This document shows, in pieces, positions 1 to 58,231 of a DNA stretch of 64,000 nucleotides. The DNA lies in contig CP050876.1 of NCBI GenBank assembly GCA_050916035.1, forward strand, positions 410,372-474,371. The letters are read 5' to 3'. The notes beneath the pieces were generated by a model. It worked only from the letters and a program-made list of their open reading frames with translations, did no database searches and was not told the origin of the DNA. This DNA is from Vampirovibrio sp. Its GTDB lineage: Bacteria > Cyanobacteriota > Vampirovibrionia > Vampirovibrionales > JAJTHC01. The first letter of the stretch is position 1, and each line of letters begins with the position of its first letter. The position numbers and the translations under genes are program-made.

Positions 1-151
1 CAAATACTAAAAGAGAAAAGTCATTTAGAAAACACTGGGATTCTAAATATTCGTTTGTATAAGCTCTATTTATATCCACTTTTTCTAATCCCACGCATTA
101 ACAAGTTGTTAAGGGGACTCATCAAACATTTATTACTTATCATGGAATAAT

Positions 152-1084
152 TCACCTGTCACTGAATTCATAACCAAATTCTTCTTTAAGACAGAGCCTT
201 ATTTTTTCTTTTTGATACACGTTTTTAATCCCTGCCTGTTCTTCCCAAACCGAATGGCCTGAATGACCTTGCCAACAATGTTGATAATAATGGTCCCTCA
301 GATCTTGAGAAGGAAGAGGATCTGTAAAGGCATAACCCAATTTCATGATTTTATCAAACCAATACGCAGCGGTATCTCCCCCATCTTCATGATTACCAAA
401 ATAGCAAGCATGCTGTTTCGCTATTTTTTTTGCAGTCTTTACATTGATCAAACAACACCATTCATTGATACGGCAAGCACGCTCATAATATTTTGGAAAC
501 GCCCCTTTATCACTGGTGGTCAAAGGCCAATACGCATGTGGACGTGTGCCTTCTACTATTTTAGTTGGATGACAGATCATTGAATCTTTACAAATCCAAC
601 ATTGACCCAAATCACCGACTATTGCATAATTTGAGTCACTTTCAATGGTGTCATAATAGAGCTTTAAAATATTTTTTGTAAATTTAATATCGTCATGAAT
701 CACAAAAAGATACTTTTTATCCGTTTCCATTATAGCCCATTGATATCTAATATCGGCCTCCTCAAATAAAGCGTTCTTAAGATAAGCATACACAAAACGG
801 CGCCAAGATTTAAAGGACTTAGGCTTAAAACGCTTGGTCATCAATTGTGTGCCCCAGCCACCTGGTTTTTTATTCACACGCAATTTTAATTGAATAGGCG
901 CCAAACACTCATGTAAGTGAGGATCTATATAATACGCCATCGTCCCATCGTTAGAGCAGTCGTCATTTATATATATCGTATCTATTAAATGTCCACAGGC
1001 TTGCTTTAACGAAAATAAAGTATAAATTAGGGACTCTGGTTTTTTATAGGATTGTATGGCCACATCTACTTTACTTGTCATCAT
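152..1084 (-). CDS. glycosyltransferase family 2 (GT-A fold)
   Basis: The N-terminus 'VDVAIQSYKKPESL...YINDDCSNDGT' matches the GT2 signature, and there is a DxD-like 'VIHDDI'. It lies in the low-GC glycan cluster with other sugar-modifying genes. Confidence 0.6.
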   Translation of the reverse strand: MMTSKVDVAIQSYKKPESLIYTLFSLKQACGHLIDTIYINDDCSNDGTMAYYIDPHLHECLAPIQLKLRVNKKPGGWGTQLMTKRFKPKSFKSWRRFVYAYLKNALFEEADIRYQWAIMETDKKYLFVIHDDIKFTKNILKLYYDTIESDSNYAIVGDLGQCWICKDSMICHPTKIVEGTRPHAYWPLTTSDKGAFPKYYERACRINEWCCLINVKTAKKIAKQHACYFGNHEDGGDTAAYWFDKIMKLGYAFTDPLPSQDLRDHYYQHCWQGHSGHSVWEEQAGIKNVYQKEKIRLCLKEEFGYEFSDR

Positions 1085-1096
1085 TTGGTCCTTCTT

Positions 1097-2602
1097 TTAC
1101 GGGATCTTAAAAAACGCTTTGCACCGTTGGCGGAATGTTTTACTGGGCAATATAGAGATTATGCAGCGTAGTAAAGCGCTTTGACGCGATGATCGAATTT
1201 GATCTTGAGGCGTTTGCATCTTGCACACAAAAATTTCTAAGGCGGTGGGTTTTCGCTTTCTTTGTATCTTAATACGCTGTAAACGATGATTCGAGGGAAA
1301 CTGTTGATGACAGGACACTAAGTGCTTTGAAAAACCCTCAGGCAAGTGGTCACGCTCTAAAATATCGTATAAAGTCTGTGACACCGTAGGCGTATTAAGC
1401 GCTAAAACTGCTTTTTCAATCAGGGCTTCTGGCGTCTCACAAAAAATACCCGCTTCCTGAAAGGTATCCAATTCATTCAACGGCGTTTTCAACGTCAGAC
1501 AAGGAATATTGTATTTAGCAATGTCTAGTAAAGCGGTAAAAGAACTCATCGGAAAGCTATCCATGGCTAAATCCGCCAAACCCAAATACAGCTCTAGTTC
1601 ATTATGGGGAATTTCTCCAAGGCAAAATATTCTCCCCGAGGAAAGCGCCACTGTATTTTGCCAATGTTCATCCGTTTCACTAGGGCCAATCGCCAGTAAC
1701 ACCGCTTCAGGCACCCTATTTAAAATAGACTGCAGGGTAGTCATAAAATCGTAAGGAGCAAACGGTTTATATTTATAGGATGACGCCATGGTGAGCACCA
1801 CTTTAGCCTTCATAGAAATACCTAATCGCTTTTTCAAGGCAGTATTATGGTCCGTATGCTTCATCAAGGGATCAGGCTGTTCAAGGGGTAAGGGCAAAAG
1901 ACATTGCTTACGAATCCCTCGATGCCATTGATTAAATTCGGTAGAAAACGTTCTTAAATTCACCACTAAGTCTGAAATACTCGCCCCAAGCCAAAAAAGA
2001 TGATCCGCATGATTAAAAAACACCACGGGTCTTAAAAAATCTGCCGTCCCAAAAGCCAGCAAAGGCACCATATCATTCATGTGAACCTGTAAAATAACGG
2101 CTTCATAAGCACTTGCCTGTTTTCTTAAGGCCAACGCTTTTTCTATAAAAGGAGAAGCAGGCGGTAAAATAGTCAGGCTCCCGCCACAGTTCGTGACCAG
2201 TTTTTCTAACAAAGGGGGTAAATTCAGAGGGTCCTTCAAATCAGTGATTAACACCGAATGCTTAGAATGAGGCGGTGCATTTTTGATCCAACGCTCCAGC
2301 ACACGCGTATGCCCCCCTGTTAGATAAGGCGTCGTTAAAACATGTAAAAAAGTATTGGGTTTATACGAATTTTCCTGCTCAATCGTATGCCTTTGAGCCA
2401 CTTGTAACAAGGCTTCTTCCAGTTCAGGAAAAACCATGCGATTACACATATTCATCGTACAAAAAGTGGCAAGTTCGGCCAAGGCTTGTAATTTTTCCAC
2501 TTCTACTTTCTTCTTTAAGGCCCGTTTCAATTGGCGCAAAATATGTTTTTCATTATTTAGAATATAAGTTTCTATGGCTTGATCAGACATCACATTAGAC
2601 AT
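1097..2602 (-). CDS. glycosyltransferase, GT4-like (GT-B fold) with N- and C-terminal extensions
   Basis: '[20 protein letters not shown]' resembles the GT4 N-terminal motif. A C-terminal '[23 protein letters not shown]...ALLD' resembles the GT4 nucleotide-sugar binding region. Context is the glycan cluster. Confidence 0.4.
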
Positions 2603-3689
2603 ACGTATTCACCGCCTCCACCACACGAGACACTTGAGCCTTGCTTAAAACGGGTGATATCGGGAGGCTCAACACCTCTCGGTGGATTTGCTCCGTCACA
2701 GGGAAAGACGCCCTATTCCATTCAGGATACGCCTGTTGCTGATGAGGAGGAATCGGATAATGCACCAAGGTTTGAATCCCCTGCGCCTTTAAATAGTCTT
2801 GTAAGGCGTATCGATGGGCCGTTCGCACCACAAACAGGTGAAACACATGGGCCTGCCAATCTTGAACGGTGGGCAACACAATAGCGGGATTCTGAATCTC
2901 ACACAAGTAACGTTTCGCCACGTAACGACGCGCGTCATTACTGGCATCTAAATCAGGGAGCTTGACCTGAAGCACCGCCGCTTGCAGTTCATCCAATCGA
3001 GAGTTCACCCCCTGATAACGATTTTCATATTTTACGGCAGAGCCATAATTTCGCAGTATCGCTATTTTTTCGGCCAAGGCGTCGTCATGGGTCGTCACCG
3101 CGCCACCATCTCCTAATGCTCCCAAATTCTTACCTGGGTAGAAACTAAAACCTGTCGCATCCCCCAGAGACCCCACCCGTTCCTTACGATAAGGATAAAA
3201 CGCACCATGGGCTTGCGCTGCATCTTCAATCACTTTTAAGTTGTATTGTTTCGCCACCTGCAGGATAGGGCCCATATCAACCGCTTGACCATATAAATGC
3301 ACCACCATAATTGCCTTGGTTTTTGGCGTAATCGCCGATTCTATTTGAGCGCTGTTGATATTATACGTGTGCAAACAGGGTTCCACCAAAACGGGGGTCA
3401 ACTGATTTTGTGAAATCGCTAAAATACTGGCAATATAGGTATTGGCGGGGACAATCACTTCACTGCCTGCTTCAAACGCATAGGCCTTAAGAATCAGACT
3501 TAACGCATCCAAACCATTGGCCACCCCAATGCAATGTTTAACGCCGCAATAATCAGAAAAAGCCTGAGCGAATCGTTCATTTTCCTGCCCAAGGAGATAC
3601 CAGCCTGAGTCTAGCACACGCTGAAAAGCCTCGTCCAACGCAGGACGATACACCGCATTCATCGCCTTTAAATCAAGAAAAGGAATCAT
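2595..3689 (-). CDS. DegT/DnrJ/EryC1/StrS-family PLP-dependent sugar aminotransferase (FdtB/WecE-like)
   Basis: Typical family N-terminus '[40 protein letters not shown]...'. It sits near FdtA-like and FdtC-like genes. Confidence 0.8.
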
Positions 3690-4597
3690 AACACCAACCT
3701 CTTCAAATCCGAAGTCAATTTAGACGCGCCTGCTTCAGTAAGATGATCAAAATCACCAAAATCTTCCCACTCGAACTGTGAATCTGAAAAATAGTTGCAT
3801 AGGGTAATATCTTGCCCCTCAATCATTGAGTACAAAGAAGCAAATAATTCAGATTCATGAGGTAAACAATCCAAATAATCTCTTCTTGCAGGAGGAATTA
3901 AAATAAACACGTCCATCCCTTCCTGCTGGGCCATGTCAATAAAACGAATCAAGTAAGAAAGAACATCATTTTTTCTCTCATTTTCCCTTAAATGTGTTTT
4001 TACTCTCTCTTTGACAGGAGCATTTTGATCAAAATAACGATTTAACCGAACATAGCCTTGTGTATTAACCCTGTCTTTTACCAAAGGAAATCGCTTTTTA
4101 CTTAAGGATTTATACACTTTATAAAGCCCCCCTAGGTTCTGGTCATCAGGCAGTTTATAGTCAATATCATATAAGCATTTAAAATAATTACACACCTCAT
4201 AATCAATTGTTTTTTGGACTTCTAAGCCTGAGGAAAAAACAGAATACACTAAAATAATTCGTTTAAGTTTAAGCGACTTTTTCAATTTATTCATTAAATG
4301 AAAAGAATAATACAGGTCTTGGCTGGTTGAACACAAATTAAAACTATTGGGTGAAAATTGAGGCGTATCAATACCATAAGCCCCATGAGAAGAACCTAAA
4401 ATCAAAGTATCGATCGACGACATATTTTGTTTCAGCATCCAAAATTTTTGGCTTATTTCATGTTCATAAAAACCATGAGACAGAGATTTACCACGAAAAA
4501 AATCAATCCATTTTTGTATCAAAGGGAGTTTCATTCTAATTCCTTTTACGAAAAGAGCAGGACGGTCAATATCAACTGCACTGAATAAAGATCTCAA
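3686..4597 (-). CDS. hypothetical protein, possible SGNH/DltD-like hydrolase (glycan O-acyl modification?)
   Basis: 303-aa ORF at about 33% GC. '[11 protein letters not shown]' resembles the GDS(L) block I and the C-terminal 'DFDHLTEAG' resembles the Asp/His block V. The real start may be the M at 4534. Similarity is only motif-level. Confidence 0.3.
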
Positions 4598-5273
4598 AAA
4601 GAGATATTAAATATGTTTGGTACGATATTAAAATCTTCTTTTTGTTTCGTCAGCCCTAATATTTCGAACACTTTTTCGTCAATAACTGCGTCTGCATAAA
4701 TATATTCCGTTCCTTCTTTTATGGTATTGGTCGCATTTCTAAACTTTTTAAGTAAATTTCTTCGTACCCAACTCATGTGATGGCAAACCACAACATCGTA
4801 CATAAATATATAAGGATGTTTAATGTGATTTAAACACCGTGTAGGATCAACTACAATAGGAGCATTGCTTTGGGTACACAATCTACGTTGAGAGGTTAAT
4901 TGTGAGATAAAAGGAATGGCGTAGTTGGCAATTTCTTTTTGTTGATATTGGGGAGTATTAACGTAATTTCTATGAAAACAAAAGGTGGTATCATAATTGT
5001 GTTTTAAGATTTTTTCTTTGGCCCACTGTATTTCTTCCGCGTGATAGAACTCATCTACATCCATCACAAGTAAATAATTACATTTTGCCTTTCGTACGGC
5101 TTGAACGCCTATATTTCTTTTGAAAAGTTCATTATCTATTGATGTTTTTAAAGCATCAGGTTCAAAGAAAATAATTTCATCAATAAGCTTTTTTTCTTTT
5201 AATGAAAGTAGCAAGTCATAAAGACAAGCCTCTGCAGGTTCTCCATGCCAAGAAGTGCTTTGGTAGACGACAT
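4594..5273 (-). pseudogene. C-terminal fragment of a glycosyltransferase-like gene split by the IS element
   Basis: The track ORF 4594..5289 has its apparent 'MSTLP' start codon inside the IS terminal repeat (ATGTCGACA). There is no native start before Met76. The fragment contains the DxD-like 'YLLVMDVDEF'. It is in frame with the 6118..6350 fragment once the IS and one TA are removed. Confidence 0.5.
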
Positions 5274-5289
5274 TAGGTAGTGTCGACAT

Positions 5290-5736
5290 TTACTTAAGCC
5301 ATAAACAAATAGAAGCAAGATGAACAAAAGACAAATAAGCCACATCTAATTTATCGTAACGGGTTGCCATTCGCCTGAAGTTTTTAAGGTCTTTAAACAA
5401 GTTTTCTACCAAGTGGCGAGCCTTGTAAAGGAAGTAATCGACTTGACGAGGAGCCACCGCATTGCTTTTATTAGGGATGACCACTTCAGCCCCCATGAGG
5501 TGAATCGCCTCAAATATTTGTTCTGAAACATAGCCCTTGTCCGCCAAAACCGCCGTGGCTTCAAGCCCTTTTAACAAAGGGATGGCTTGGGTTGAGTCGG
5601 AAACCTGCCCTGCGGTGACGATAAAGCGAACGGGGTTGCCGTGGCTGTCACAAACGGCGTGAAGCTTGCTCGTATAGCCCCCTGACGATCGTCCTAACGC
5701 TTGTTTTCCGGCACTTTTTTTGCCCCTGCTGAACAC
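5290..5736 (-). CDS. IS transposase OrfB (DDE catalytic part, presumably fused to OrfA by -1 frameshift)
   Basis: 148-aa product identical to ORF 48028..48474. It overlaps orfA by 43 nt in the -1 frame, which is the typical IS427-group organisation. Confidence 0.8.
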   Translation of the reverse strand: MFSRGKKSAGKQALGRSSGGYTSKLHAVCDSHGNPVRFIVTAGQVSDSTQAIPLLKGLEATAVLADKGYVSEQIFEAIHLMGAEVVIPNKSNAVAPRQVDYFLYKARHLVENLFKDLKNFRRMATRYDKLDVAYLSFVHLASICLWLK

Positions 5737-6050
5737 TGGTGGGCGCGAATAATCGTCGAATCAATCATAAGCCATTCGGTATCTGCCGATGTGGCAAGGG
5801 TGTTGAAAATCATTTGCCAAATGCCTTGTTTCGCCCAACGAATGAAGCGCTTGTGAACACTGCTCCACTTGCCGTAATAATAGGGAAGCGACCTCCATCT
5901 TCCCCCGTTTCGCCCCATCCATAATACCGCTTCTACAAAAAGACGGTTGTTTTCGGCAGTGCGTCCTCTATGATGCGACTGACCAGGTAGAGCCTCTTTT
6001 ATCTGATTCCATTGGGCTTTAGACAACTCGTATTGAATATAATCGTTCAT
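5694..6050 (-). CDS. IS transposase OrfA (HTH part)
   Basis: 118-aa product 'MNDYIQYELSKAQWNQIKEALPGQSHHRGRTAENNRLFVEAV...' is identical to ORF 47714..48070. It ends at an A7G slippery run (T-run 5715..5721 on the plus strand). Confidence 0.8.
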   Translation of the reverse strand: MNDYIQYELSKAQWNQIKEALPGQSHHRGRTAENNRLFVEAVLWMGRNGGRWRSLPYYYGKWSSVHKRFIRWAKQGIWQMIFNTLATSADTEWLMIDSTIIRAHQCSAGAKKVPENKR

Positions 6051-6117
6051 AATAAATCCCTCAAAACAACTAGATCTTGGATTTATTATATCATTATTTA
6101 TATGTCGACACTACCTA

Positions 6118-6350
6118 ATATAATGGGCAGAAGATCTCACCGATTGCAAAGAGGCTTCTAACAGTTCCTCTCCGTCAAATAAGCTATAGGTAATCCCTAG
6201 TTTAAAGGTCTCTATCTTTTTAGACAAGGAGAAGAGCTTGATTGACTCTCTTGCATTTCTACGTTTTTTTCTACTGAATGAAACGCAATCAAGATATTGT
6301 GATAGGGTTTTCACCCTTTTTCCCGCTTGAATCATAATCTGTTTTAACAT
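6118..6350 (-). pseudogene. N-terminal fragment of the same IS-split glycosyltransferase-like gene
   Basis: The stop codon of track ORF 6111..6350 (CTA 6111..6113 on the plus strand) lies inside the IS terminal repeat. '...ITYSLFDGEELLEASLQSV' resembles a GT2-type N-terminal motif. The reading frame continues into 5275 after 5276..6117 is removed. Confidence 0.45.
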
Positions 6351-6353
6351 GAG

Positions 6354-6806
6354 CTAATGAATACTCCTTGCGGGATTACCGATAACCGTTGTATGCGCGG
6401 GGACGTCCTTCGTAACCACGGCACCCGCTCCCACCATGGCATGTTGACCAATGGTCACCCCAGGTAAAATCGTGGCATTCGCCCCGATTGAGGCCCCTGC
6501 TTCAATGGTAATGCCTTGCAGCAGAAAGTCTCGATTCCCCGATTGAGGGTACTTGTCATTACAAAAGGTGACATTCGGACCAATAAAGACATCATCCGCA
6601 ATACGAAGCCCATCCCACAACTGCACCCCATTTTTAACCGTGACCCGATTACCCAGTACCACCTTGTTTTCAATCAAGACATGGGCGCAAATGTTACAGT
6701 CTTCCCCAATTTGAGCCTCTGGCAAAATAACACAAAACTGCCAAATACGTGTTCCTTTCCCAATATGGGGGCTTTGTACATCTGACAGAGGATGAATAAA
6801 CGTCAT
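6354..6806 (-). CDS. hexapeptide-repeat sugar N-acetyltransferase (FdtC/WxcM C-domain-like)
   Basis: Left-handed beta-helix hexapeptide repeats are visible ('[49 protein letters not shown]'). It overlaps the FdtA-like gene by 4 bp. Confidence 0.7.
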
Positions 6807-7207
6807 GAGCCAGACACCTCTTTCAAAAAGTCGTCGTAGTCGCGGATGTATTCTTCAGGGTGGTAATGAGCGCTGGCCAAGACCAACAGCACGCAGCCTT
6901 GCGAAAAATCAAACATCTCTCTCCATAACATTTTACCCACATACAAGCCTTTTTCAGGGGTATTGAGTTCAAAAACCCCGACGATTTGGCCGTCATCCAC
7001 CTTGACCTTACAAGACCCATTAACACACACCAAAACTTGTTCTAAATCTCTATGCGCGTGGGAGCCGCGGGGGACGTCTCGCTTGGTGTCGTAAATATAG
7101 TAAATGCGTTGAATGTCAAACGGAATGTTTTTTTGAGATTCTAAAGAAACCAAGCTCCCGCGAAGATCACCAAAAGCCTTAAAGTCCAATAAATGGTAGT
7201 TAGGCAT
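6803..7207 (-). CDS. FdtA/WxcM-like cupin, NDP-4-keto-6-deoxyhexose 3,4-ketoisomerase
   Basis: 134-aa product with '[35 protein letters not shown]...', matching the FdtA family size and His motif. Confidence 0.6.
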
Positions 7208-7300
7208 AGTGAAAAATCCTTTACATCCAACATGACTTTAATTATACAGGTAAGACTTCTTTTGAACAGGCTGACCTAGTTCGTGATATAAAATACTCGA

Positions 7301-8389
7301 TTACTCTATTTCTCGATGCACAGGGTAGCCTTCTGTCAGCAAGAGCTTTTCCTTCTGAGCGTCTTTCAAATCCTCGTGAATCATTTCCTTTACCAAGTCC
7401 GCCAATTGGTACTGAGGCGTCCACCCCAGTGCGTGACGCGCTTTAGACGCGTCCCCCAATAATAAATCCACCTCCGTAGGACGAAAATACGTAGGGTCCA
7501 CTTCAATCACAACCTTACCTGTGGCGGTATCCACCCCTTTTTCATCCACGCCTTGTCCTTGCCAAACCAAGTGAATACCCAGTTCGGCAAAGGCCATTTG
7601 GCAAAAATCACGAATTGTGGTGGTCACCCCTGTGGCTAAAACATAATCTTCTGGGCGCTCCTGCTGCAAAACGCGCCACATGCCTTCCACATAATCTTTG
7701 GCATGGCCCCAATCTCGTTGAGCGTCTAAATTGCCCAAGTATAGTTTTTCTTCCAAGCCTAATTTAATGCGTACCGCCGCACGGGTAACTTTACGCGTGA
7801 CGAAGGTTTCACCTCGGCGTGGGCTTTCATGATTAAATAGAATGCCATTACACGCAAACATATTATAACTTTCACGGTAGTTAATGGTAATCCAATACGC
7901 ATAGATTTTGGCACAGGCGTAAGGCGAACGCGGATAAAAAGGCGTGCTTTCTCGCTGAGGGGTTTCCTGCACCAAGCCAAACAATTCCGACGTTGAGGCT
8001 TGATAAAACTTGGTCTTGGCTTCTAAGCCTAAAATACGAAGGGCTTCCAGCAACCTTAAGGTGCCTAAGCCGTCCACATTGGCGGTGTATTCAGGGCAAT
8101 CAAAGGAGACTTTTACATGAGATTGTGCCGCCAAGTTGTAGATTTCATCAGGCTGAATGCGCTGTACCAATCGAATCAAATTGGTGCTGTCGGTTAAATC
8201 ACCATAATGTAATTTAAAGCGAAGGTCTTCGTCGTGTGGATCCTGAAAGAGGTGATCAATCCGACTGGTATTTAAAGAAGACGCTCGACGCTTAATGCCG
8301 TGGACTTCATAGCCCTTGGCGAGTAAAAGTTCTGCCAAATAACTACCATCTTGCCCGGTTATCCCTGTAATTAAAGCTACTTTTTTCAT
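7301..8389 (-). CDS. gmd: GDP-mannose 4,6-dehydratase
   Basis: '[32 protein letters not shown]...' is the canonical Gmd N-terminus. It has the full-length SDR-fold dehydratase signature '[10 protein letters not shown]'. Confidence 0.9.
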
Positions 8390-8462
8390 CGATTCAAATC
8401 CTTCATATACTTTGATACGGCTTTATAAAACGCAAGAATTCCCTTGGCTCAGCAATAAAAGA

Positions 8463-9638
8463 CTAAGCATTTAAAACCTGAACCAAGTAATCAATCTTGT
8501 CTTTAATATCAAATTGATGGTTGCCCACAAAAAATCCTTGTTGATCAATGTAGTCTGCTTGACGCAAGTCTCCTGAAATTTCATAATCAAAGTAAGACAA
8601 CACCTTGTTTTTCACAAAATTCCCCGCCACAATAGGACGACAATCAATCTGATGCGCCTCTAGTTTTTGAACCAATTCAGATCGCTTTAAAGTGGATTCA
8701 GGGCGAATCATCAACGCAAAGCCAAACCAAGAACTTTGGCCTATTTCTTGTTGAATCATCAAATCAGGGTGATCTTGAAAACGTTCTTGAAAATATCGCG
8801 CGTTTTCTCGACGAATCTTCAAAAACTCAGGGAGCTTCTGTAATTGTGTTAATCCTGTAGCGCCTGACATTTCTAAAGGGCGTACATTATAGCCCGGTAA
8901 AATAAAACGAAAGGCCTCTTCAAAGGTCTGCGCTGATTTTTGACAAAGGGTATTGTCGTCGCCAAGGTGTCGCGTCCACCCATGAGAGCGTAAGCAGACC
9001 AAGATGTCTCTCAAATGTTCATCATCCGTCACAATGACCCCACCTTCCATCGTGGAAATATGGTGGGAGAAAAATCCAGAAAACGTCCCCATTAATCCAA
9101 AGGTGCCTGCTTGCTTGCCTTTAAATGTGGCCCCCAGCGATTCACAGTTATCTTCCAGTAAAATGATATTTTTATCTTGAATCAAGGCCTGAAGACGATC
9201 AAAATCGTTGGGATTTCCTAATAAATTAACGGCCAAAATTGCTTTGGTCTTAGGCGTAATGGCGGCTTCTAAGGCGTCTAAATCAAAATTGAGCGTCTCT
9301 GTCGACACATCCACAAATTTAAGCTTTAATCCATATTGATATAAGGGATAATACGTGGTAGGCCACGACACCGCAGGGACAATGACTTCATCTCCGCGTT
9401 GAAGCTTTGGACTGTTGGTATAAAACAAGCTGGCAATCATTAATAAATTAGCGCTTGACCCTGAATTCACCATCACCGCATAACGAGACCCCACATACGC
9501 GGCAAACGCACGTTCAAATTCAAAAACCTTGGCGCCCATAGTCGTTTGATGCAAGTCTGCCAATTTTTTAATGGCGTCTACCTCTTGCGCGTCCCACGAA
9601 CTTTCAGCAAGCGGATACCGTGTTTTTGTAATAGTCAT
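8463..9638 (-). CDS. colD: GDP-4-keto-6-deoxy-D-mannose 3-dehydratase-like (ColD-type member of DegT family)
   Basis: DegT-fold protein of 391 aa. The active-site region reads 'FFSHHISTMEGG', with histidines where aminotransferases carry the PLP-binding lysine. That substitution is the known hallmark of ColD. It sits between gmd and an Fcl-like gene. Confidence 0.6.
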   Translation of the reverse strand: MTITKTRYPLAESSWDAQEVDAIKKLADLHQTTMGAKVFEFERAFAAYVGSRYAVMVNSGSSANLLMIASLFYTNSPKLQRGDEVIVPAVSWPTTYYPLYQYGLKLKFVDVSTETLNFDLDALEAAITPKTKAILAVNLLGNPNDFDRLQALIQDKNIILLEDNCESLGATFKGKQAGTFGLMGTFSGFFSHHISTMEGGVIVTDDEHLRDILVCLRSHGWTRHLGDDNTLCQKSAQTFEEAFRFILPGYNVRPLEMSGATGLTQLQKLPEFLKIRRENARYFQERFQDHPDLMIQQEIGQSSWFGFALMIRPESTLKRSELVQKLEAHQIDCRPIVAGNFVKNKVLSYFDYEISGDLRQADYIDQQGFFVGNHQFDIKDKIDYLVQVLNA

Positions 9639-10539
9639 AGGTCTGTCGAACTCCTTCTTCTAATGAAATTTCAGGGATAAAACCAAAGGCGCTTTGCTTT
9701 TGTACGTCTACCAATTTTTGAGCCATCCCCGAAGGTTTGCTTAAATCATGAACAAAAGTACCCTGAAAACCCAGTACCTTGGCAATCGTTTCATAGTAGT
9801 CATTAATCGTATAGTCGTAGCCTAAGCCCACATTCATTAAATCAGGCAAGTCTTCAAAACGAGGGATTGCCATTTCAATAAAACGCGCCAAATCTTCAGT
9901 GTACATAAATTCTCGACGTGCCAAGCCGTCCCCCCAAATCTGAACCTCAGGGAGCTCTTGGGTAATCGCCTGATCTATTTTTTTAATCACGGCAGGAATC
10001 ATATGCGAATGCGCGTCTGAAAATTTATCATAGGGACCATACAAATTACAAGGAATCAATGTCTTATAGTGAAAGTGTGGATTTTCACGGCCAATATAGG
10101 TACATAAGCGAGCCACCGCACATTTGGCCAAGGCATATCCTTCATTGGTGGGTTCTAGTTCCCCTGTCAACACTTGAGACTCCACCAAAGGATTCGTCGC
10201 GTTTTTAGGGTACATACAACTAGAGCCCAAGTTCAGCAGATGCGGAACCCCCAGTGCTTGGGCAGATTTCACCAAATGAAAACCCATCATCATATTTTCA
10301 TATAAAAAAGCGGTGGGTTGAGCGATATTGGCTTGAATCCCTCCCACCTTTCCCGCACAGTGAATAATCAAGTCAGGCGCGTGAGTTGCCAAATAAAGGT
10401 GAACGCTAGAGGCGTTCAATAAGTCTAGCGCTGCTCTTGTGGGCGTTAGCAATTCAAAATGCATGGCCAAGCGCTTGACTAGCGTTCTGCCTACCATACC
10501 CGCCGCACCTGTAATTAAAATCTTTCGAATTTTAGGCAT
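9604..10539 (-). CDS. GDP-L-fucose synthase family epimerase/reductase (Fcl / ColC-like)
   Basis: 'MPKIRKILITGAAGMVGRTLVKRL...' carries the NAD(P)-binding GxxGxxG. The start is set at the ATG at 10539; the track ORF extends to 10635 through an alternative start. It is the last gene of the gmd-colD-like trio. Confidence 0.75.
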   Translation of the reverse strand: MPKIRKILITGAAGMVGRTLVKRLAMHFELLTPTRAALDLLNASSVHLYLATHAPDLIIHCAGKVGGIQANIAQPTAFLYENMMMGFHLVKSAQALGVPHLLNLGSSCMYPKNATNPLVESQVLTGELEPTNEGYALAKCAVARLCTYIGRENPHFHYKTLIPCNLYGPYDKFSDAHSHMIPAVIKKIDQAITQELPEVQIWGDGLARREFMYTEDLARFIEMAIPRFEDLPDLMNVGLGYDYTINDYYETIAKVLGFQGTFVHDLSKPSGMAQKLVDVQKQSAFGFIPEISLEEGVRQTYDYYKNTVSAC

Positions 10540-10694
10540 ATTTTCTGCTTCCCAAGCAACTGTACTCATCCCCTTAGAATAAAATAACACACTACTCTTC
10601 ACTAAATCAAGAAACCCCCTTCCCAAAGCCGCCAAAATAAAGACTTAAAACAGCACAATTGTGCGAATCCCTAATGAATTTATACAAAACACAC

Positions 10695-10723
10695 TTGCAT
10701 TATACGCACCTTTGTCATATGGT
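10695..10723 (+). promoter_or_regulatory. sigma70-like promoter upstream of rpsR (TTGCAT-N17-TATGGT)
   Basis: Sequence match TTGCAT(10695-10700), a 17-nt spacer, then TATGGT(10718-10723). An AAGGA ribosome-binding site lies 10 nt before the ATG at 10830. Confidence 0.4.
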
Positions 10724-10829
10724 TTAACTTGTGTCGTTTGCCAATCTTTTATTTAGAGGGGTATCCGAGTCGCCTGTGACGACAATGGCACCGCGTATTC
10801 ACAGTACAAGACACAAAGGAATCTGCCTT

Positions 10830-11048
10830 ATGATGGCTGAACGTCCTAAGAAGCGTTGCTATTTTCAAGCAAACAAAATCTATTACATTGACTATAAGGA
10901 CGCTAATTTATTACGTCGCTTTTTGACGGATCGTGGGAAAATCTTGCCTCGTCGTATTACGGGAGTCAGCGCGTTTTTTCAACGTCGACTCACCAAAGCG
11001 ATTAAGCGCGCAAGAGCCGCTGCGATTTTGCCTTACGTCTACGACTAA
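10830..11048 (+). CDS. rpsR: 30S ribosomal protein S18
   Basis: '[70 protein letters not shown]' is canonical S18. The start is set at the ATG at 10830, which has a ribosome-binding site; the track ORF starts further upstream at an alternative codon. Confidence 0.85.
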
Positions 11049-11248
11049 GATGAAAACGTAAGACTGTCTTGACTGTCATGGGCTTGAATAAATGTCTTGA
11101 ATTTTTCTTTGCTTTGAATCGTTATTGTTTTGAAAATGACTGCTGGACTCTGGCGTTTGTCCGTCATTCAAAATCCAAGTCTCCTTTATACAAGCCTTCG
11201 TCGCTCAAGTGATGACCCTCTAAAATTAACAAAAATGGAGTTTATCCT

Positions 11249-12037
11249 ATGCCAGTGATTACCTTGGAAGAATTGATGGAAGCAGGCGTTCACTTTGGTC
11301 ACCAAACCAAACGTTGGAACCCTAAAATGAAGCCCTATATTTGGGGCAAGCGTAACGGTATTTATATTATTGACTTAACCAAAACCGTCCCTTTGTTTGA
11401 ACAAGCGTACGAAGCGGTCAAAGCCGTTGCGGCATCAGGCAAAAAAGTAGTTTTTGTCGGCACAAAAAAACAAGCAGCGGATATTGTGGCTGAAGAAGCG
11501 ACACGTGTTGGTGCTTTATACATCAACAAACGTTGGTTGGGGGGGACTTTAACCAATGCAACCGTCATTCGTGGTCGTATTCAACGCCTACGTGAACTTG
11601 AAGAACTCGAAGCCAGCGGTCACTTTGAACGCATGAACAAAAAAGAATTAGCCGTGATGAATCGTACCTTGGCGAAGCTACGTCGTAGCTTAGGGGGATT
11701 GAAAAACATGCGTGGCGAACCTGGTTTGGTCGTCGTCGTGGATGTAAAACATGAACTCAATGCGGTATTGGAAGCGCGTAAAGCTGGTGTGCCCATTGTC
11801 TCTCTACTTGATACCAATGCGGATCCGAGCCTCTGTGATTACAATATTCCTGGTAACGATGATGCACTAAAGTCCATTCGCTTGATTGTCGGTCGCTTGG
11901 CAGACGCCATTGCAGAAGGCAATACAGAACGTGAAAATGCTTTGGCCGTCGCCAAAGAAGCCCAAAAAGCCCCTGCCAAAGAAAAAGCGGCAGAGCCTGA
12001 ATTGGTGGCCAGCGTCACGGAAGAAGTCATTTCTTAA
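11249..12037 (+). CDS. rpsB: 30S ribosomal protein S2
   Basis: 'MPVITLEELMEAGVHFGHQTKRWNPKMKPYIWGKRNGIYIIDL...' is canonical S2. The rpsB-tsf gene order is conserved. Confidence 0.95.
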   Translation: MPVITLEELMEAGVHFGHQTKRWNPKMKPYIWGKRNGIYIIDLTKTVPLFEQAYEAVKAVAASGKKVVFVGTKKQAADIVAEEATRVGALYINKRWLGGTLTNATVIRGRIQRLRELEELEASGHFERMNKKELAVMNRTLAKLRRSLGGLKNMRGEPGLVVVVDVKHELNAVLEARKAGVPIVSLLDTNADPSLCDYNIPGNDDALKSIRLIVGRLADAIAEGNTERENALAVAKEAQKAPAKEKAAEPELVASVTEEVIS

Positions 12038-16564: not shown

Positions 16565-18019
16565 ATGGTCTTTGTTTCGCAGTCTAAATTGCGGATTACC
16601 CCCATTGCGTATCCGCTAGATCAAAATGAAAATGTCTCTTTGCCGTCTGTCCTGAGGGAAGATGCCCCTATTGCAACGGCGCCTCCCAAAGCCAAAAGTC
16701 GCCCTCCCCTCATTCAAAAGAAAAAAGAAGACCCGAAAAAAAAGTCACACTGGATGACCAATGCAGGCTTTCAACTCTATGCGGTCGTCGGAGCGATTAA
16801 AACCGTCTCCAGCCTAAAGCGCGGCTTTGAATTTGGAAACCCCACCTTACTTCTAGGCAATACCGCTTTATTGGCGTCCTTTCCCGCCGTTTTTTGGTCG
16901 CATGGATTTTATGCCAAAGCCTTTATGTTGGTGGCCAATCATTTGTCTGAAATGGCAGAAGCCACCATTGGCTATAATGACCGTGTCACCGCGGAAGCCC
17001 ACAAGGCACGCGAAAAGGGTTATAGCGTCCCTCCCTTAGACATTAAGGGCATGAAAGGATTTCAACATTGGTTTAATCGAGACTTATTAAAACGTACGCT
17101 TCGCTTCCGCAACACCACAAACGACAAACACCAATTTAAAGAAGCCACCGCTTTTATTGTGAATGATTTAAAATATGCGGAAAAACAATTACAAGGTACC
17201 CTTCATGCCGGGGGGCAATGGATCAAAGAAGCCTCTAAAAAAGTGGTGAATCCTCAGTATAAAATGAAATGGCCAGAACGATTCAAAGTGGATTCCTTAG
17301 CCAGTGGATCCCTTGAAAATATCAAGATCCAAAAAAACATCTACCATGCGGAAACTACAGGAGCCTTCGGCGGGATTGTCGGCGTGATGATTGAAACCGT
17401 GGCAGACAGTATCGGCGTTAATCATGTGGCCAAGATTTTTACCCGCCCCGCCTTACTCGTGGCCAACCTGTTACAAACCACCGCCGCCTTATGTGGCGCC
17501 AAGCAATTGTATTTTAGACCCGATGCACAACAGAAAAAATCCCCCAAGTTTAAAAATATGGCCTATCAGGAAGCAGGCGGGGTCGTTTTAGAAGCCGTCG
17601 GTGCCGCGAGCTGGTCCAATGACTGGCTTTTGGGGATTTATCGAATTGGTTCCGCCTTAAGAATGCCCTACCGTAAGCATAAAACCAAATTGACCACCAA
17701 TGAAGCAGGCCAAGTCGTTGAACTCAAAATACTGACCCCTGCGGTGAAAAAAGCCTTATTTACGGAAAATTTGTCTTTTGTGGCGGATGTCGTGGCCGCT
17801 GGGCTCATTTTAGGGGCGCCCTTAATCGCGTGGTGGGAAGCCAAACATCGTAAAAGTCTCAATCCCGTCGAACGTTTAAAGTCCACACCCAAGCAACAGG
17901 CAAAACCCAACGTATCATCCAAGGTTCAGTCCGTTTCTTATCCTCGTTTGTCGCAGAACAAATCCCCTGTCGACACGCAAAATCTAAAGGCCCCATTGGC
18001 TTCTCAGGCATTTGCATAA
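16565..18019 (+). CDS. hypothetical alpha-helical membrane protein (Lys/Pro-rich linker, several hydrophobic segments, C-terminal anchor)
   Basis: Long ORF with no recognisable domain. 'PPKAKSRPPLIQKKKEDPKKKSH' precedes the first hydrophobic segment. A C-terminal transmembrane segment reads 'FVADVVAAGLILGAPLIAWW'. Confidence 0.4.
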   Translation: MVFVSQSKLRITPIAYPLDQNENVSLPSVLREDAPIATAPPKAKSRPPLIQKKKEDPKKKSHWMTNAGFQLYAVVGAIKTVSSLKRGFEFGNPTLLLGNTALLASFPAVFWSHGFYAKAFMLVANHLSEMAEATIGYNDRVTAEAHKAREKGYSVPPLDIKGMKGFQHWFNRDLLKRTLRFRNTTNDKHQFKEATAFIVNDLKYAEKQLQGTLHAGGQWIKEASKKVVNPQYKMKWPERFKVDSLASGSLENIKIQKNIYHAETTGAFGGIVGVMIETVADSIGVNHVAKIFTRPALLVANLLQTTAALCGAKQLYFRPDAQQKKSPKFKNMAYQEAGGVVLEAVGAASWSNDWLLGIYRIGSALRMPYRKHKTKLTTNEAGQVVELKILTPAVKKALFTENLSFVADVVAAGLILGAPLIAWWEAKHRKSLNPVERLKSTPKQQAKPNVSSKVQSVSYPRLSQNKSPVDTQNLKAPLASQAFA

Positions 18020-27238: not shown

Positions 27239-28564
27239 TTAACCACCATGGGACGACGCTCCCTCTGCGGGAGCGGGAGCTCCACCACCGCCACCAAAAT
27301 TAATCGTTGGCAAGCTAATATTGGCATGGCTGGCTTCTACCCATGTCCCAAAAACAGCCGCACATAATCCACCGATCACACCCCAACCCACGAGATGATC
27401 CAAAGGGGGTACATATTTTAAGAACTTACTTAAGGTATCCTTCTTTTTAAGGCTTAAAACGGCATGCGGATCAAAAGGAATCGGTAGATCCTCCATAGAC
27501 AAGCTCCCTTGCTTCGCACGGTTTAAAGGCTTTGTTTGACGAATCGCACGCAGGTTGGAAGATTTATCTTTAGCCCATGGCCATCTGACCCCTTGTTGCG
27601 TGTGCTGCTTAATACGAGGACGTCCCTCTGAACCTTTTCCATAGCGTCCGAGCTGACGTACCACAGGAAGCTTCCATAAATCTTCCGCAATACGAGACCC
27701 TAAATCATGTTCTAATTCTTCGGTAAAGGCTTTACGGTAATAACGCATTTCTTTGCTTGGCTTATGTTCAATGACGTCAAAGGCATAACCAGAAGGATGC
27801 CCCCGACGATCGACAATATTGTCCGCCGTAATGGTGGCTTGAGCTTGAGTCCCTAAGACACTGGCCCGATAACGCGTGGAGGGTTCATCCAAGAATTGAA
27901 CATCTAAAAAGGGACTGTTATAACGCGTATTGTTTGGATCTAGCAAACGCGCTACGGGTTCATAGGCGGTTAAAAAACCAAAAAATCCATTGCGTTTAGA
28001 CCTTAAAATACTGACACTTTCCCCCGTGGGATTTTGACCCGCTTGTTTCCAAAAATCATTTTTAGACCCCACCCCATTTTTTTGATACCGCACGCGATAA
28101 AAGTGACCGTCTTCTCCACGACCCGCTAAAATCTGGCCAGGAACCAGCTTGCCGTCTTCTTCGGCTTGTCGAATTTTGGTATAGTGAAGGAGCCCCTTAA
28201 TCATCACCGCCAAGGTAAAGCCTTCGCTAAAATGTCCGACAACATTCAAGGTACTGCCTTGTAAAAATTCGATTTTAGAATCGTCCTTTTCTTTGGTCAA
28301 CACAGAAGACAAAAGGCGATTGAGTAAGGGATCTCTTTCTATACTACCGTTTTTATTTTCTTCTTTTTTCTCTTCACCTTCTTCTTTCACGTGCTTGGCA
28401 TGGGTCGCTTGCTGAGCCAAAGTCGCCTTAGACACATTACCCAAGGTGGCAAGATCTGCTCCGCCTGCCCCATGAGCGACATGAGCCTCTTGACCTTGGC
28501 GTGCCAAGGAAGCAGAAGTCGTCAGAGTGGGCATCATTGAAAAAGGAGTCATCATAAAATGCAT
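27239..28564 (-). CDS. hypothetical protein with C-terminal transmembrane anchor and Gly-rich tail
   Basis: 441 aa with no recognisable domain. A C-terminal 'VGWGVIGGLCAAVFGTWV' is followed by 'GGGGGAPAPAEGASSHGG'. Confidence 0.4.
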   Translation of the reverse strand: MHFMMTPFSMMPTLTTSASLARQGQEAHVAHGAGGADLATLGNVSKATLAQQATHAKHVKEEGEEKKEENKNGSIERDPLLNRLLSSVLTKEKDDSKIEFLQGSTLNVVGHFSEGFTLAVMIKGLLHYTKIRQAEEDGKLVPGQILAGRGEDGHFYRVRYQKNGVGSKNDFWKQAGQNPTGESVSILRSKRNGFFGFLTAYEPVARLLDPNNTRYNSPFLDVQFLDEPSTRYRASVLGTQAQATITADNIVDRRGHPSGYAFDVIEHKPSKEMRYYRKAFTEELEHDLGSRIAEDLWKLPVVRQLGRYGKGSEGRPRIKQHTQQGVRWPWAKDKSSNLRAIRQTKPLNRAKQGSLSMEDLPIPFDPHAVLSLKKKDTLSKFLKYVPPLDHLVGWGVIGGLCAAVFGTWVEASHANISLPTINFGGGGGAPAPAEGASSHGG

Positions 28565-47551: not shown

Positions 47552-47713
47552 ATACGTCTGGTGTTTTAAATACGACCCCCCTTTATCCTTCCGTTGTGGG
47601 ATTCCGAATTAATATATCTGCAGGACGCCACATTTTCTCGATATACTAGGTAGTGTCGACATATAAATAATGATATAATAAATCCAAGATCTAGTTGTTT
47701 TGAGGGATTTATT

Positions 47714-48070
47714 ATGAACGATTATATTCAATACGAGTTGTCTAAAGCCCAATGGAATCAGATAAAAGAGGCTCTACCTGGTCAGTCGCATCATAGAGGA
47801 CGCACTGCCGAAAACAACCGTCTTTTTGTAGAAGCAGTATTATGGATGGGGCGAAACGGGGGAAGATGGAGGTCGCTTCCCTATTATTACGGCAAGTGGA
47901 GCAGTGTTCACAAGCGCTTCATTCGTTGGGCGAAACAAGGCATTTGGCAAATGATTTTCAACACCCTTGCCACATCGGCAGATACCGAATGGCTTATGAT
48001 TGATTCGACGATTATTCGCGCCCACCAGTGTTCAGCAGGGGCAAAAAAAGTGCCGGAAAACAAGCGTTAG
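47714..48070 (+). CDS. IS transposase OrfA
   Basis: Identical to the 5694..6050 product. Confidence 0.8.
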   Translation: MNDYIQYELSKAQWNQIKEALPGQSHHRGRTAENNRLFVEAVLWMGRNGGRWRSLPYYYGKWSSVHKRFIRWAKQGIWQMIFNTLATSADTEWLMIDSTIIRAHQCSAGAKKVPENKR

Positions 48071-48474
48071 GACGATCGTCAGGGGGCTATACGAGCAAGC
48101 TTCACGCCGTTTGTGACAGCCACGGCAACCCCGTTCGCTTTATCGTCACCGCAGGGCAGGTTTCCGACTCAACCCAAGCCATCCCTTTGTTAAAAGGGCT
48201 TGAAGCCACGGCGGTTTTGGCGGACAAGGGCTATGTTTCAGAACAAATATTTGAGGCGATTCACCTCATGGGGGCTGAAGTGGTCATCCCTAATAAAAGC
48301 AATGCGGTGGCTCCTCGTCAAGTCGATTACTTCCTTTACAAGGCTCGCCACTTGGTAGAAAACTTGTTTAAAGACCTTAAAAACTTCAGGCGAATGGCAA
48401 CCCGTTACGATAAATTAGATGTGGCTTATTTGTCTTTTGTTCATCTTGCTTCTATTTGTTTATGGCTTAAGTAA
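48028..48474 (+). CDS. IS transposase OrfB (DDE), -1 frame relative to OrfA
   Basis: Identical to the 5290..5736 product. It overlaps the A7G slippery site. Confidence 0.8.
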   Translation: MFSRGKKSAGKQALGRSSGGYTSKLHAVCDSHGNPVRFIVTAGQVSDSTQAIPLLKGLEATAVLADKGYVSEQIFEAIHLMGAEVVIPNKSNAVAPRQVDYFLYKARHLVENLFKDLKNFRRMATRYDKLDVAYLSFVHLASICLWLK

Positions 48475-48598
48475 ATGTCGACACTACCTAAGTTTAACGT
48501 TAAAACATGTAACAATCTATTCAAGCATTTTAAAAAAGTAACCGACCCATTTAAAGACCTTCATTTCCATCACAAACCCTTTCCAGAGGAGCTTCATC

Positions 48599-56605: not shown

Positions 56606-58231
56606 ATGATGTCCATACAACAGCACCCCCTAAGCTATCACACCCTGTCGACGCTCAAAGCCGAACAGGATGAATTGAAACACCCTGTTTTGTCGCCCCC
56701 TGTGACCCACATCCAAACACCAATAGATGACCACTCAGCCCCAGAAGACTCTTTTCAAAAAGCACCCCCCCTCGTTTCAACAGAGACCGCCCCTCAAAAA
56801 TTCAGCCTTTTGCATCCGTTTCAACGACCCAAAAAGAAAAAAGACCCCCCTCAAAAATTCGAAATATCGCCTGAATTAGTGGCGTTGGCCGTAGCTGGTT
56901 ATGCCTCTACACTCAATCCCGCTGCCGCCGCAGGCTTAACAGCTAAAATCGACTCACAATTTTTTTGGAACTTTACCATTCTAGACTTTGTAGGCATGGC
57001 ATTCCCTCGCATCTCTCGCTCTCTACAACGAGGCGCCCTACCTTATGATCCCACTCAAGACCCTGAGTCTCAAAAACGCCACGGTTTAGACCGGTGGCGC
57101 TACATTAAACATCAACAAGTCCAAAATGCCAACTGGCTCAACTTACGAGAAGAAATGCTGAGAGAACTCCAAGCCGCCCCAGGTTCATTGTTGGTCCCCA
57201 CCATTGTCTTTAGTCTCGTCCCCTTGTTGAGCCGTCAAAAAGCTTTGAATTGGATGGGACGACGAAGCTTACAAATGTCTCATCACTTGGCAGAACAAGA
57301 AAGTTTAAGTCAACAACATTTTCTAAAAACAAAATCCCCTCGATTGCCCCAGCATGAAAAAGATATTCACGCCTTAGAAGCCTTAGGGCGTGATTATGTC
57401 CGTACGATTTTTAAATCAGTGCCTGAATCACACCTTCACGAAAAGATCGACCTTCACTTTACCGCCAAGACGATTATGGACCCTTACTTTCACATGAGTA
57501 CAGGGCATTTAAAGGCCTTAAAAGCAGGACTCAAAAAAGGGGAGTTGTTTGGACTTCAAGAACAACTGGCCCAAGCCACGACCCTCAATACTAAAACCCC
57601 TTTAACCCTTCAGAACGTCAGCTTGGCTAAAATCATTGAAGAAATTGCGGATACTCAAGGCAAGCTACTCGCCTTTGATGTCAAACATGGGGCGGGATCT
57701 ATTTTCTTTAACCGCAAACGTCGCGGGGAACATGCCTTACTCACCGCGAAAATGCAAGCTCTGTATACCTTAGCCGAACAAAGTACCTTAACACTCAATG
57801 CCCAACACCTTCCCCAGCAACGCATGCATAAAGGGATGACCCTTCTCACCCTTCTGGCAGGACATCAAGCCGAACAAGTGCCTATTTTAGAGCGTTTACG
57901 CCAGCTCGACAAAGGCCGAGATTTATGGACGGCAAGTCTTCGCGAATACTTAAAGCCGAATCAATCCAAGCCATTTGAACAGATTATGGCACAGGCGCTT
58001 GAAAAAATGAAAGCCACCAAGGCGGTCTTAACCTTGGCCGCCTTGACGTGGATGTTAGGTTGGATGTGGTATTTGTCCCATGCCATTCAACGTGGAGAGG
58101 AATACCCCGCGAACCGTTTAGTGTCATTGAGTCTCAAGAAAAAGTCTGAAGAAAAAAATCCCCCTGAAGAAACAGCTCCCCCCTCGCCTAATCTGTATCA
58201 TCAAATCAAAGAAGGAGACTTGGCTTCATGA
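56606..58231 (+). CDS. hypothetical large alpha-helical membrane-anchored protein (first gene of a two-gene operon)
   Basis: 541 aa with no known domain. 'RPKKKKDPPQKFEISP' precedes a hydrophobic segment. A C-terminal transmembrane segment reads 'AVLTLAALTWMLGWMWYL'. It overlaps the next ORF by 4 bp (ATGA). Confidence 0.45.
   Translation: MMSIQQHPLSYHTLSTLKAEQDELKHPVLSPPVTHIQTPIDDHSAPEDSFQKAPPLVSTETAPQKFSLLHPFQRPKKKKDPPQKFEISPELVALAVAGYASTLNPAAAAGLTAKIDSQFFWNFTILDFVGMAFPRISRSLQRGALPYDPTQDPESQKRHGLDRWRYIKHQQVQNANWLNLREEMLRELQAAPGSLLVPTIVFSLVPLLSRQKALNWMGRRSLQMSHHLAEQESLSQQHFLKTKSPRLPQHEKDIHALEALGRDYVRTIFKSVPESHLHEKIDLHFTAKTIMDPYFHMSTGHLKALKAGLKKGELFGLQEQLAQATTLNTKTPLTLQNVSLAKIIEEIADTQGKLLAFDVKHGAGSIFFNRKRRGEHALLTAKMQALYTLAEQSTLTLNAQHLPQQRMHKGMTLLTLLAGHQAEQVPILERLRQLDKGRDLWTASLREYLKPNQSKPFEQIMAQALEKMKATKAVLTLAALTWMLGWMWYLSHAIQRGEEYPANRLVSLSLKKKSEEKNPPEETAPPSPNLYHQIKEGDLAS

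Follow-up and report, generated by a model that had tools for sequence, protein, structure and literature searches.

Predicted GDP-L-colitose and 3-acetamido-3,6-dideoxyhexose modules in a probable O-antigen gene cluster of Vampirovibrio sp.

At one end of a 64,000-nucleotide stretch of DNA from Vampirovibrio sp. (NCBI contig CP050876.1; this whole stretch is called the window below) lies a run of co-directional open reading frames (ORFs) on the minus strand, at positions 152..10635. The question that this locus raises is which nucleotide sugars it makes, and on which carrier. The first-pass annotation, made from the sequence alone, had proposed a pathway to colitose linked to guanosine diphosphate (GDP), encoded beside genes for a 3-acetamido sugar, and had suggested that the latter might also act on a GDP-linked intermediate. 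All the ORFs that it named were found where it had placed them. We consider, with a probability of about 0.8, that the minus strand of 152..10539 forms the right-hand portion of a gene cluster for a surface polysaccharide, probably an O-antigen, and that it holds two independent and conventional nucleotide-sugar modules together with glycosyltransferase-like genes. The genes assigned to the two modules are, in the order of transcription:

9604..10539, minus strand: colC, predicted GDP-4-keto-3,6-dideoxy-D-mannose epimerase/reductase of the GDP-L-colitose synthase type, 311 aa
8463..9638, minus strand: colD, predicted GDP-4-keto-6-deoxy-D-mannose 3-dehydratase, 391 aa
7301..8389, minus strand: gmd, GDP-mannose 4,6-dehydratase, 362 aa
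6803..7207, minus strand: predicted fdtA/qdtA-type nucleoside diphosphate (NDP)-4-keto-6-deoxyhexose 3,4-ketoisomerase, 134 aa
6354..6806, minus strand: predicted fdtC-type left-handed beta-helix N-acetyltransferase, 150 aa
2595..3689, minus strand: predicted fdtB/qdtB-type NDP-3-keto-6-deoxyhexose 3-aminotransferase, 364 aa

The 391-aa protein is a member of the DegT family (PF01041, 261 bits), and it had been taken at first pass for a ColD-like variant with a histidine in place of the lysine that binds pyridoxal phosphate (PLP). It aligned end to end, over residues 7-389, with the E. coli ColD structures 2gms, 3b8x, 2r0t and 3gr9 at 524-529 bits, the score for 2gms being 529. In contrast, E1, the cytidine diphosphate (CDP)-sugar 3-dehydrase, reached 206 bits and perosamine synthase 127 bits. 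In this comparison with ColD, Per and RfbH/E1 the protein did not group with the lysine-containing aminotransferases, all of which scored 128 bits or less. The active-site motif SHHISTMEGG comprises Ser191, His192 and His193. Ser191 and His192 fall on Ser187 and His188 of 2gms, and His192 thereby on the residue that is mutated in 3b8x (His188). In ColD, His188 takes the position of the PLP lysine of the aminotransferases (PMC8987622). Identity was 61% to ColD of an E. coli colitose cluster and 61-65% to known ColD enzymes overall. The motif and the coordinates given in the first-pass annotation were both correct, and the His-variant DegT protein is, as judged from its sequence, an orthologue of ColD. 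By lineage, it was 75% identical to a protein from a metagenome-assembled genome (MAG) labelled "Cyanobacteria bacterium", proteins from other Vampirovibrionia orders being 61-67% identical; Helicobacter, flavobacterial and Bdellovibrio proteins were equally close (61-65%).

Two other assignments of this protein were tried and ruled out. An E1/RfbH-type CDP-sugar dehydratase was rejected on the difference between 206 and 529 bits and on a score of 290 bits with the RfbH model, the cutoff of which is 423. A perosamine synthase was rejected since the protein lacks the lysine and scored 127 bits. As regards the [2Fe-2S] cysteine cluster of the E1/SpnQ type, the protein contains only four cysteines (165, 215, 232 and 333). 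In E. coli ColD, a double mutant corresponding to S191N/H192K reportedly gained aminotransferase activity.

The reductase encoded by colC carries the GxxGxxG and YxxxK motifs of the short-chain dehydrogenases/reductases, in the forms GAAGMVG and YALAK. It was 55% identical to the reductase that adjoins colD in an E. coli O-antigen cluster whose gene order we take to be that of O111, versus 40% to Fcl of E. coli K-12. With the NCBIfam equivalog model for Fcl it scored 298 bits, the cutoff being 500. The gene had been described as Fcl-like; this was confirmed, with the precision that the reductase is of the ColC type. Since the alignment with Fcl starts at residue 37 of a longer ORF beginning with TTG, the correct start codon of colC is the ATG at 10539. 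As for gmd, its product scored 608 bits with TIGR01472, above the equivalog cutoff of 415, and was 65% identical to K-12 Gmd, in agreement with the name that it had received at first pass.

The three genes also keep together elsewhere. In a set of 80 ColD loci drawn from GTDB species representatives, most had a ColC homologue (48-61% identity) directly upstream of colD, and the trio of colC, colD and gmd was found in most. In the window the order is colC-colD-gmd, colC and colD overlapping by 35 nt and colD being separated from gmd by 73 nt. Homology, catalytic residues and synteny bore out the proposal of a GDP-colitose-type module, and they support the assignment of Gmd, ColD and the ColC-type reductase to a predicted GDP-L-colitose module. 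In such a module, Gmd would convert GDP-mannose to GDP-4-keto-6-deoxy-D-mannose by oxidation and dehydration. ColD, using pyridoxamine phosphate (PMP), would then remove the C3 hydroxyl through a Schiff base between PMP and the sugar, with His192 serving as the acid/base in place of the Schiff-base lysine; glutamate would serve to regenerate PMP. Finally, ColC would epimerise C5 and reduce C4 to yield GDP-L-colitose. These reactions of Gmd, ColD and ColC were reportedly described by Alam, Beyer and Liu in 2004 (cited in PMC8987622).

The same three enzymes (Gmd, ColD = WbdK and ColC = WbdJ) make up the GDP-L-colitose pathway known from E. coli O55/O111, Salmonella, Yersinia pseudotuberculosis and Vibrio cholerae O139, whose ColD structures are 2gms, 2gmu, 2r0t, 3b8x and 3gr9. 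In the E. coli colitose cluster, as in the window, colC immediately precedes colD and the two genes overlap. There are differences, however. The usual order in colitose loci is gmd-colC-colD, as against colC-colD-gmd here, and the E. coli cluster holds manB, manC and gmm, which the cluster in the window does not. The host is also another one, namely a non-photosynthetic relative of the cyanobacteria. Moreover, a glycosyltransferase of the GT11 type, presumably the family of a known colitosyltransferase, was not recognised in the window, whereas a diverged relative of the cluster (L166, see below) carries GT11 genes.

The second module comprises an FdtA-like ketoisomerase, an FdtC-like acetyltransferase and a DegT aminotransferase, a set that the first-pass annotation had recognised and that agreed well with known structures. 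The ketoisomerase matched PF05523 with 171 bits and was 56% identical both to FdtA 2pa7 and to 7n67. Its catalytic histidines His50 and His52 are kept, aligned on the residues mutated in 2pae and 2pak (His49 and His51 in FdtA). The top ketoisomerase structures were deposited as isomerases of dTDP (deoxythymidine diphosphate)- or TDP-sugars, the closest as a dTDP-sugar isomerase. The start of fdtC overlaps the stop of fdtA by 4 nt, and the FdtC protein was 67% identical to 7s3u (210 bits). It scored 193 bits with the acetyltransferase half of the 4mzu protein, which we take to be a bifunctional ketoisomerase/N-acetyltransferase, 88 bits with Hexapep and only 82 bits with QdtC. The aminotransferase keeps its lysine, Lys187, within FYPGKNLG, and scored 473 bits with 7n63, 444 with 5u1z, 399 with QdtB (3frk) and 202 with GDP-perosamine synthase. 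For the substrates of 7n63, 7n67 and 7s3u we go by the molecule names in the Protein Data Bank. Most related loci encode, along with FdtA, a homologue of the aminotransferase (44-65% identity), which often comes straight after FdtA. Taken as a set, FdtA, FdtC and the aminotransferase support the prediction of a 3-acetamido-3,6-dideoxyhexose module.

In this module, the FdtA/QdtA cupin would shift the C4 keto group of dTDP-4-keto-6-deoxyglucose to C3, the Lys187 aminotransferase would aminate C3, and the beta-helix acetyltransferase would N-acetylate the amine. The product would be a dTDP-3-acetamido-3,6-dideoxy-D-hexose, of either gluco (Qui3NAc) or galacto (Fuc3NAc) configuration. The feeder enzymes of the two modules, ManB/ManC and RmlA/RmlB, would be encoded outside the window. 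With regard to stereochemistry, the candidate positions in the window FdtA are Arg16 and Arg96, and the same Arg/Arg pattern occurs in 7n67. We assume, as a working rule, that Arg15/His95 in FdtA (galacto) versus Tyr17/Arg97 in QdtA (gluco) set the configuration of the product. Under this rule the pattern in the window is mixed, Arg16 being FdtA-like and Arg96 QdtA-like.

The known systems that make dTDP-Fuc3NAc or dTDP-Qui3NAc are FdtA/FdtB/FdtC of Aneurinibacillus thermoaerophilus, QdtA/QdtB/QdtC of Thermoanaerobacterium, WlaRA/WlaRB/WlaRG of Campylobacter jejuni, and the Helicobacter proteins 7n67, 7n63 and 7s3u. The window has in common with them a cupin ketoisomerase with both histidines, a lysine-containing 3-aminotransferase and a beta-helix N-acetyltransferase. 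In the window fdtA and fdtC are translationally coupled, and the 4mzu protein has both activities in a single chain. The window differs from these systems in that rmlA and rmlB are not nearby, and in that the aminotransferase gene is not adjacent to fdtA but lies 2.7 kb downstream of fdtC, with other genes and an insertion sequence (IS) in between.

Several observations weigh against reading the cluster as two conventional modules of an O-antigen locus. A tblastn search with E. coli K-12 proteins found no RmlA, RmlB, RmlC, ManB or ManC gene in the 64 kb of the window, so the earlier statement that rmlA and rmlB are lacking holds for this range. In the gene string, gmd precedes fdtA by 93 bp, and no dTDP-glucose dehydratase gene is nearby. 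The diverged relative L166 has both modules in one cluster and again no rmlA or rmlB, in 18.7 kb. None of the glycosyltransferases in the window could be assigned to colitose. Last, the window holds no wzx, wzy, ABC transporter or ligase gene, which is why the O-antigen role is something that we infer. The absence of rmlA and rmlB carries little weight, since manB and manC, which are needed for the substrate of Gmd, are also absent from the window; genes for first-step activation are simply not part of this cluster.

A possibility was that the cluster no longer works in full in this genome. Between fdtC and the aminotransferase gene, the gene string contains the following features:

6116..6350, minus strand: N-terminal fragment, 78 codons, of a GT2-like glycosyltransferase gene split by the IS
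5276..6115, minus strand: IS4/IS5-type insertion sequence, 840 bp, with perfect 14-bp terminal inverted repeats (GGTAGTGTCGACAT) and a TA target duplication
5694..6050 and 5290..5736, minus strand: two overlapping transposase ORFs of the IS, matching DUF4096 and DDE_Tnp_1
4594..5275, minus strand: C-terminal fragment of the split GT2-like gene, with a weak Glycos_transf_2 match

The two transposase ORFs meet at an A-run, and this overlap suggests a programmed frameshift. The site of the IS is empty in L001, a contig of a Vampirovibrionales MAG from Lake Mendota that is 95-96% identical apart from the element, and in the sister-strain contig L169. The split gene is intact as a 293-aa ORF in these two and in a contig of the Joint Genome Institute (JGI) sample 3300059473, and in the window it is cut after codon 78. 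The intact ORF itself matches Glycos_transf_2 weakly, under the Pfam cutoff. A second copy of the IS, 99.9% identical and in the opposite orientation, lies at 47649..48488, which points to recent activity of the element. In this genome the split GT2-like gene has probably lost its activity, and the expression of the genes downstream of the IS, including the aminotransferase gene, may be affected. As one glycosyltransferase-like gene is split, this strain may make a glycan that is changed or shorter relative to that of the sister strains.

Other observations make the loss of function less clear. The remaining cluster proteins are encoded by intact ORFs and are 94-99% identical to those of L001, the DNA identity to L001 across the cluster being 94-96%. 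The listed ORF 4594..5289 starts at an ATG borrowed from the terminal repeat of the IS, which provides an in-frame ORF for the C-terminal 226 codons. Furthermore, outward promoters of the IS or internal promoters are possible; in a scan of 1..11300, promoters and terminators were no more numerous than in the shuffled background. That the cluster is partly non-functional here is a possibility that we hold for less likely than not, and it is compatible with the two-module reading of the ancestral locus. A comparable case is the interrupted O-antigen glycosyltransferase gene wbbL::IS5 of E. coli K-12; in the window, too, an IS4/IS5-type element sits in a glycosyltransferase-like gene of the polysaccharide cluster, and comparison between strains shows the intact allele. 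The element in the window differs in being smaller, with its 840 bp and two frameshifted transposase ORFs.

Another explanation is that ColD and ColC together yield some 3,6-dideoxy sugar that is not L-colitose, be it a GDP-3,6-dideoxyheptose as in Campylobacter capsule loci or another C4/C5 stereoisomer, or that ColC is in fact Fcl and its product GDP-L-fucose. Campylobacter and Helicobacter loci with ColD homologues of 62-64% identity have a reductase just 28-34% identical to ColC, along with RmlC-like genes, which indicates that ColD-like enzymes serve other pathways too, and NCBI names the window ColC "GDP-L-fucose synthase". However, the reductase is closer to the colitose-cluster enzyme than to Fcl and falls under the Fcl cutoff. 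Its gene and colD overlap, which is what most colitose-type loci show, a genuine gmd stands next to them, and no RmlC-like gene was found in the window. Another product of ColD and ColC is on this balance quite improbable. In six Campylobacter and Helicobacter loci (L015, L020, L023, L026, L060 and L063) the ColD homologues are 62-63% identical and the reductase only 28-32% identical to ColC, with RmlC-like genes beside them. These loci seem to encode another route to a 3,6-dideoxy sugar, possibly a heptose, in which a ColD-type dehydratase takes part.

The last explanation was that both branches are fed by Gmd. The FdtA-like cupin would then be the missing 3,4-ketoisomerase for GDP-4-keto-6-deoxy-D-mannose and, with the aminotransferase and the acetyltransferase, would lead to a GDP-linked 3-acetamido-3,6-dideoxy-D-mannose of the N-acetyl-mycosamine type. 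The only known GDP-linked route to a 3-amino-3,6-dideoxyhexose is the GDP-mycosamine branch of the polyene macrolides, composed of a Gmd (AmphDIII/NysDIII) and an aminotransferase (AmphDII/NysDII), and it starts from the Gmd product with no ketoisomerase known (PMC8944477). According to the same review, a 3,4-ketoisomerase for GDP-4-keto-6-deoxymannose has yet to be found (PMC8944477), which leaves this niche free. In favour of a GDP-linked route are also the position of gmd directly upstream of fdtA-fdtC, the lack of rmlA/rmlB in the window, and the combination of both modules in L166, where rmlA and rmlB are again out of range. The order colC-colD-gmd-fdtA-fdtC recurred in only one of the 79 other ColD loci, that of the sister strain L001, which was also the only one with fdtA nearby.

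The evidence on the enzymes themselves points indirectly to the dTDP carrier. Identities of 56-67% or scores of up to 473 bits tie all three to crystallised members of the known FdtA/QdtA, QdtB/WlaRG and FdtC/FdtD families, and the aminotransferase reached 202 bits with GDP-perosamine synthase against 473 with 7n63. In FdtAs that are linked to rml genes or known as crystal structures, 36 positions reach a conservation of 90% or more; the window FdtA is unchanged at 35 of them, the sole difference being the conservative D119E. We also looked at the gene context of FdtA relatives at 45-70% identity, in 45 metagenome loci of at least 5 kb. The nearest non-self relative, 70% identical, adjoins rmlA, rmlB, rmlC and rmlD. 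Over the whole set rmlA was present in 17 loci and rmlB in 10, whereas gmd was present in two, which are near-duplicates of each other and also carry rmlA. As the other 28 loci had no rmlA in range, an FdtA cluster devoid of rml genes is a common situation, and the absence of rmlA from the window is normal for the family. In addition, the GDP-mycosamine branch has no FdtA-like enzyme, and among the structures compared the window aminotransferase groups with QdtB, WlaRG and 7n63. Given the structural matches, the rml-linked relatives, the conserved residues and the parallel absence of manB and manC, the earlier suggestion of a GDP-linked intermediate for the 3-amino-sugar enzymes was not supported, and we judge this route very unlikely. 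Rather, two known pathways would be combined here in an ordinary way, in a lineage that has been little studied, and the sequence lends no support to new GDP-linked chemistry; the two pathways are accompanied by a strain-level IS polymorphism.

The diverged relative, L166 (1..18711), is a contig from a lake metagenome (LEMO22-1 scaffold_453), with about 69% DNA identity to the window cluster and 30% GC. It holds colC-colD-gmd in the same order as the window, plus FdtA, the aminotransferase and a different hexapeptide acyltransferase of 227 aa. Identities to the window were 69% for colC, 75% for colD, 81% for gmd, 69% for FdtA and 65% for the aminotransferase. Two further genes of L166 belong to the GT11 family, one being a fusion with a GT6 domain, and the edge of the contig holds an ABC transporter. 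These GT11 genes are candidate colitosyltransferases, with no recognisable counterpart in the window.

We then considered whether the cluster stands out by its base composition. The first-pass annotation had described a low-GC island, with 152..5289 at about 33-40% GC against about 50% elsewhere, as in mobile loci. The interval 6354..10539, which it had flagged, has 44.5% GC versus 46.5% in the rest of the window, and its designation as a low-GC island was ruled out. The 152..5289 region averages 39.9% but is uneven: three genes have 33-37%, the ORF 1097..2602 has 42% and the aminotransferase gene 48%, while fdtC, outside this region, has 49%. Only glycosyltransferase-like genes and genes without assigned function are clearly AT-rich (33-42%). 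Thus, the part of the claim that stood concerns the AT-rich genes of these two kinds within 152..5289. The contrast with 50% elsewhere did not stand, nor did the extension to the aminotransferase gene and fdtC, and the reading as a mobile island was weak. The GC pattern is usual for O-antigen clusters, and the sugar-nucleotide genes are not marked by it as a recent import.

The rest of the gene string consists of three ORFs:

3686..4597, minus strand: conserved protein, 95% identical in L001 and also present in L169
1097..2602, minus strand: 501-aa protein, possibly a glycosyltransferase, conserved in sister strains
152..1084, minus strand: 310-aa protein, whose homologues are named "GT2 family glycosyltransferase" by JGI

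None of the three belongs to a Pfam family, and they gave no more than weak matches, with TIGR02171 and with a GT4-type NCBIfam model, the latter being the sole match of 1097..2602 (26 bits). They may include the colitosyltransferase and the Qui3NAc- or Fuc3NAc-transferase. The true start of 3686..4597 is probably an internal ATG, since the homologues in L001 and L169 have 282 aa. In another sister-strain contig, L170, a convergent GT2 gene comes after the homologue of 152..1084, which indicates that the cluster extends past the left edge of the window.

At the other end, the divergent genes rpsR, rpsB and tsf adjoin the 5' end of the gene string, upstream of its first gene. The 105-aa ORF at 10731..11048 (plus strand), which starts with GTG, is ribosomal protein S18 with an over-extended N-terminus; its homologue in L169 is called at 72 aa. 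The divergent gap of about 190 bp beside the S18 gene must hold the colC promoter. The remainder of the window encodes housekeeping functions, among them EF-G, YidC, CoaBC, PheT, PFOR, thymidylate kinase, SerA, RF-2 and CarA. A scan of the window against Rfam gave no match.

The main value of these assignments lies in better annotation. The cluster proteins are in NCBI as identical sequences under accessions XVJ50915-XVJ50924 (locus tags near HEQ32_02020), from a Vampirovibrio sp. MAG assembled as one contig of 2,037,776 bp. ColD (XVJ50924.1) is named there "DegT/DnrJ/EryC1/StrS family aminotransferase", ColC (XVJ52316.1) bears the fucose synthase name given above, and FdtA is a "WxcM-like domain-containing protein"; the JGI name of the ColD homologue is "CDP-6-deoxy-D-xylo-4-hexulose-3-dehydrase". 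Because the public names of ColD and ColC are generic or wrong, the predicted ability of this genome to make colitose is hidden. Vampirovibrio are predatory, non-photosynthetic relatives of the cyanobacteria. Colitose, like Qui3NAc or Fuc3NAc, is familiar chiefly from enteric pathogens. Our assignments predict that a freshwater Vampirovibrio lineage displays colitose and one of these two acetamido sugars on its surface; in the literature searched, no paper linking colitose with Vampirovibrio or Melainabacteria was found. The IS polymorphism in the glycosyltransferase-like gene suggests that the surface glycan varies between co-occurring strains, and such variation could matter for interactions with phages or prey. 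A wider biochemical interest would arise only from a GDP-linked ketoisomerase, if there were one.

Outside the cluster, we noticed four large ORFs (441-616 aa). Three of them (16565..18019, 56606..58231 and 58228..60078) had no Pfam match at E ≤ 0.001 and the fourth (27239..28564) had none at E ≤ 0.01. The ORFs 56606..58231 and 58228..60078 are adjacent, with an overlap of 4 nt.

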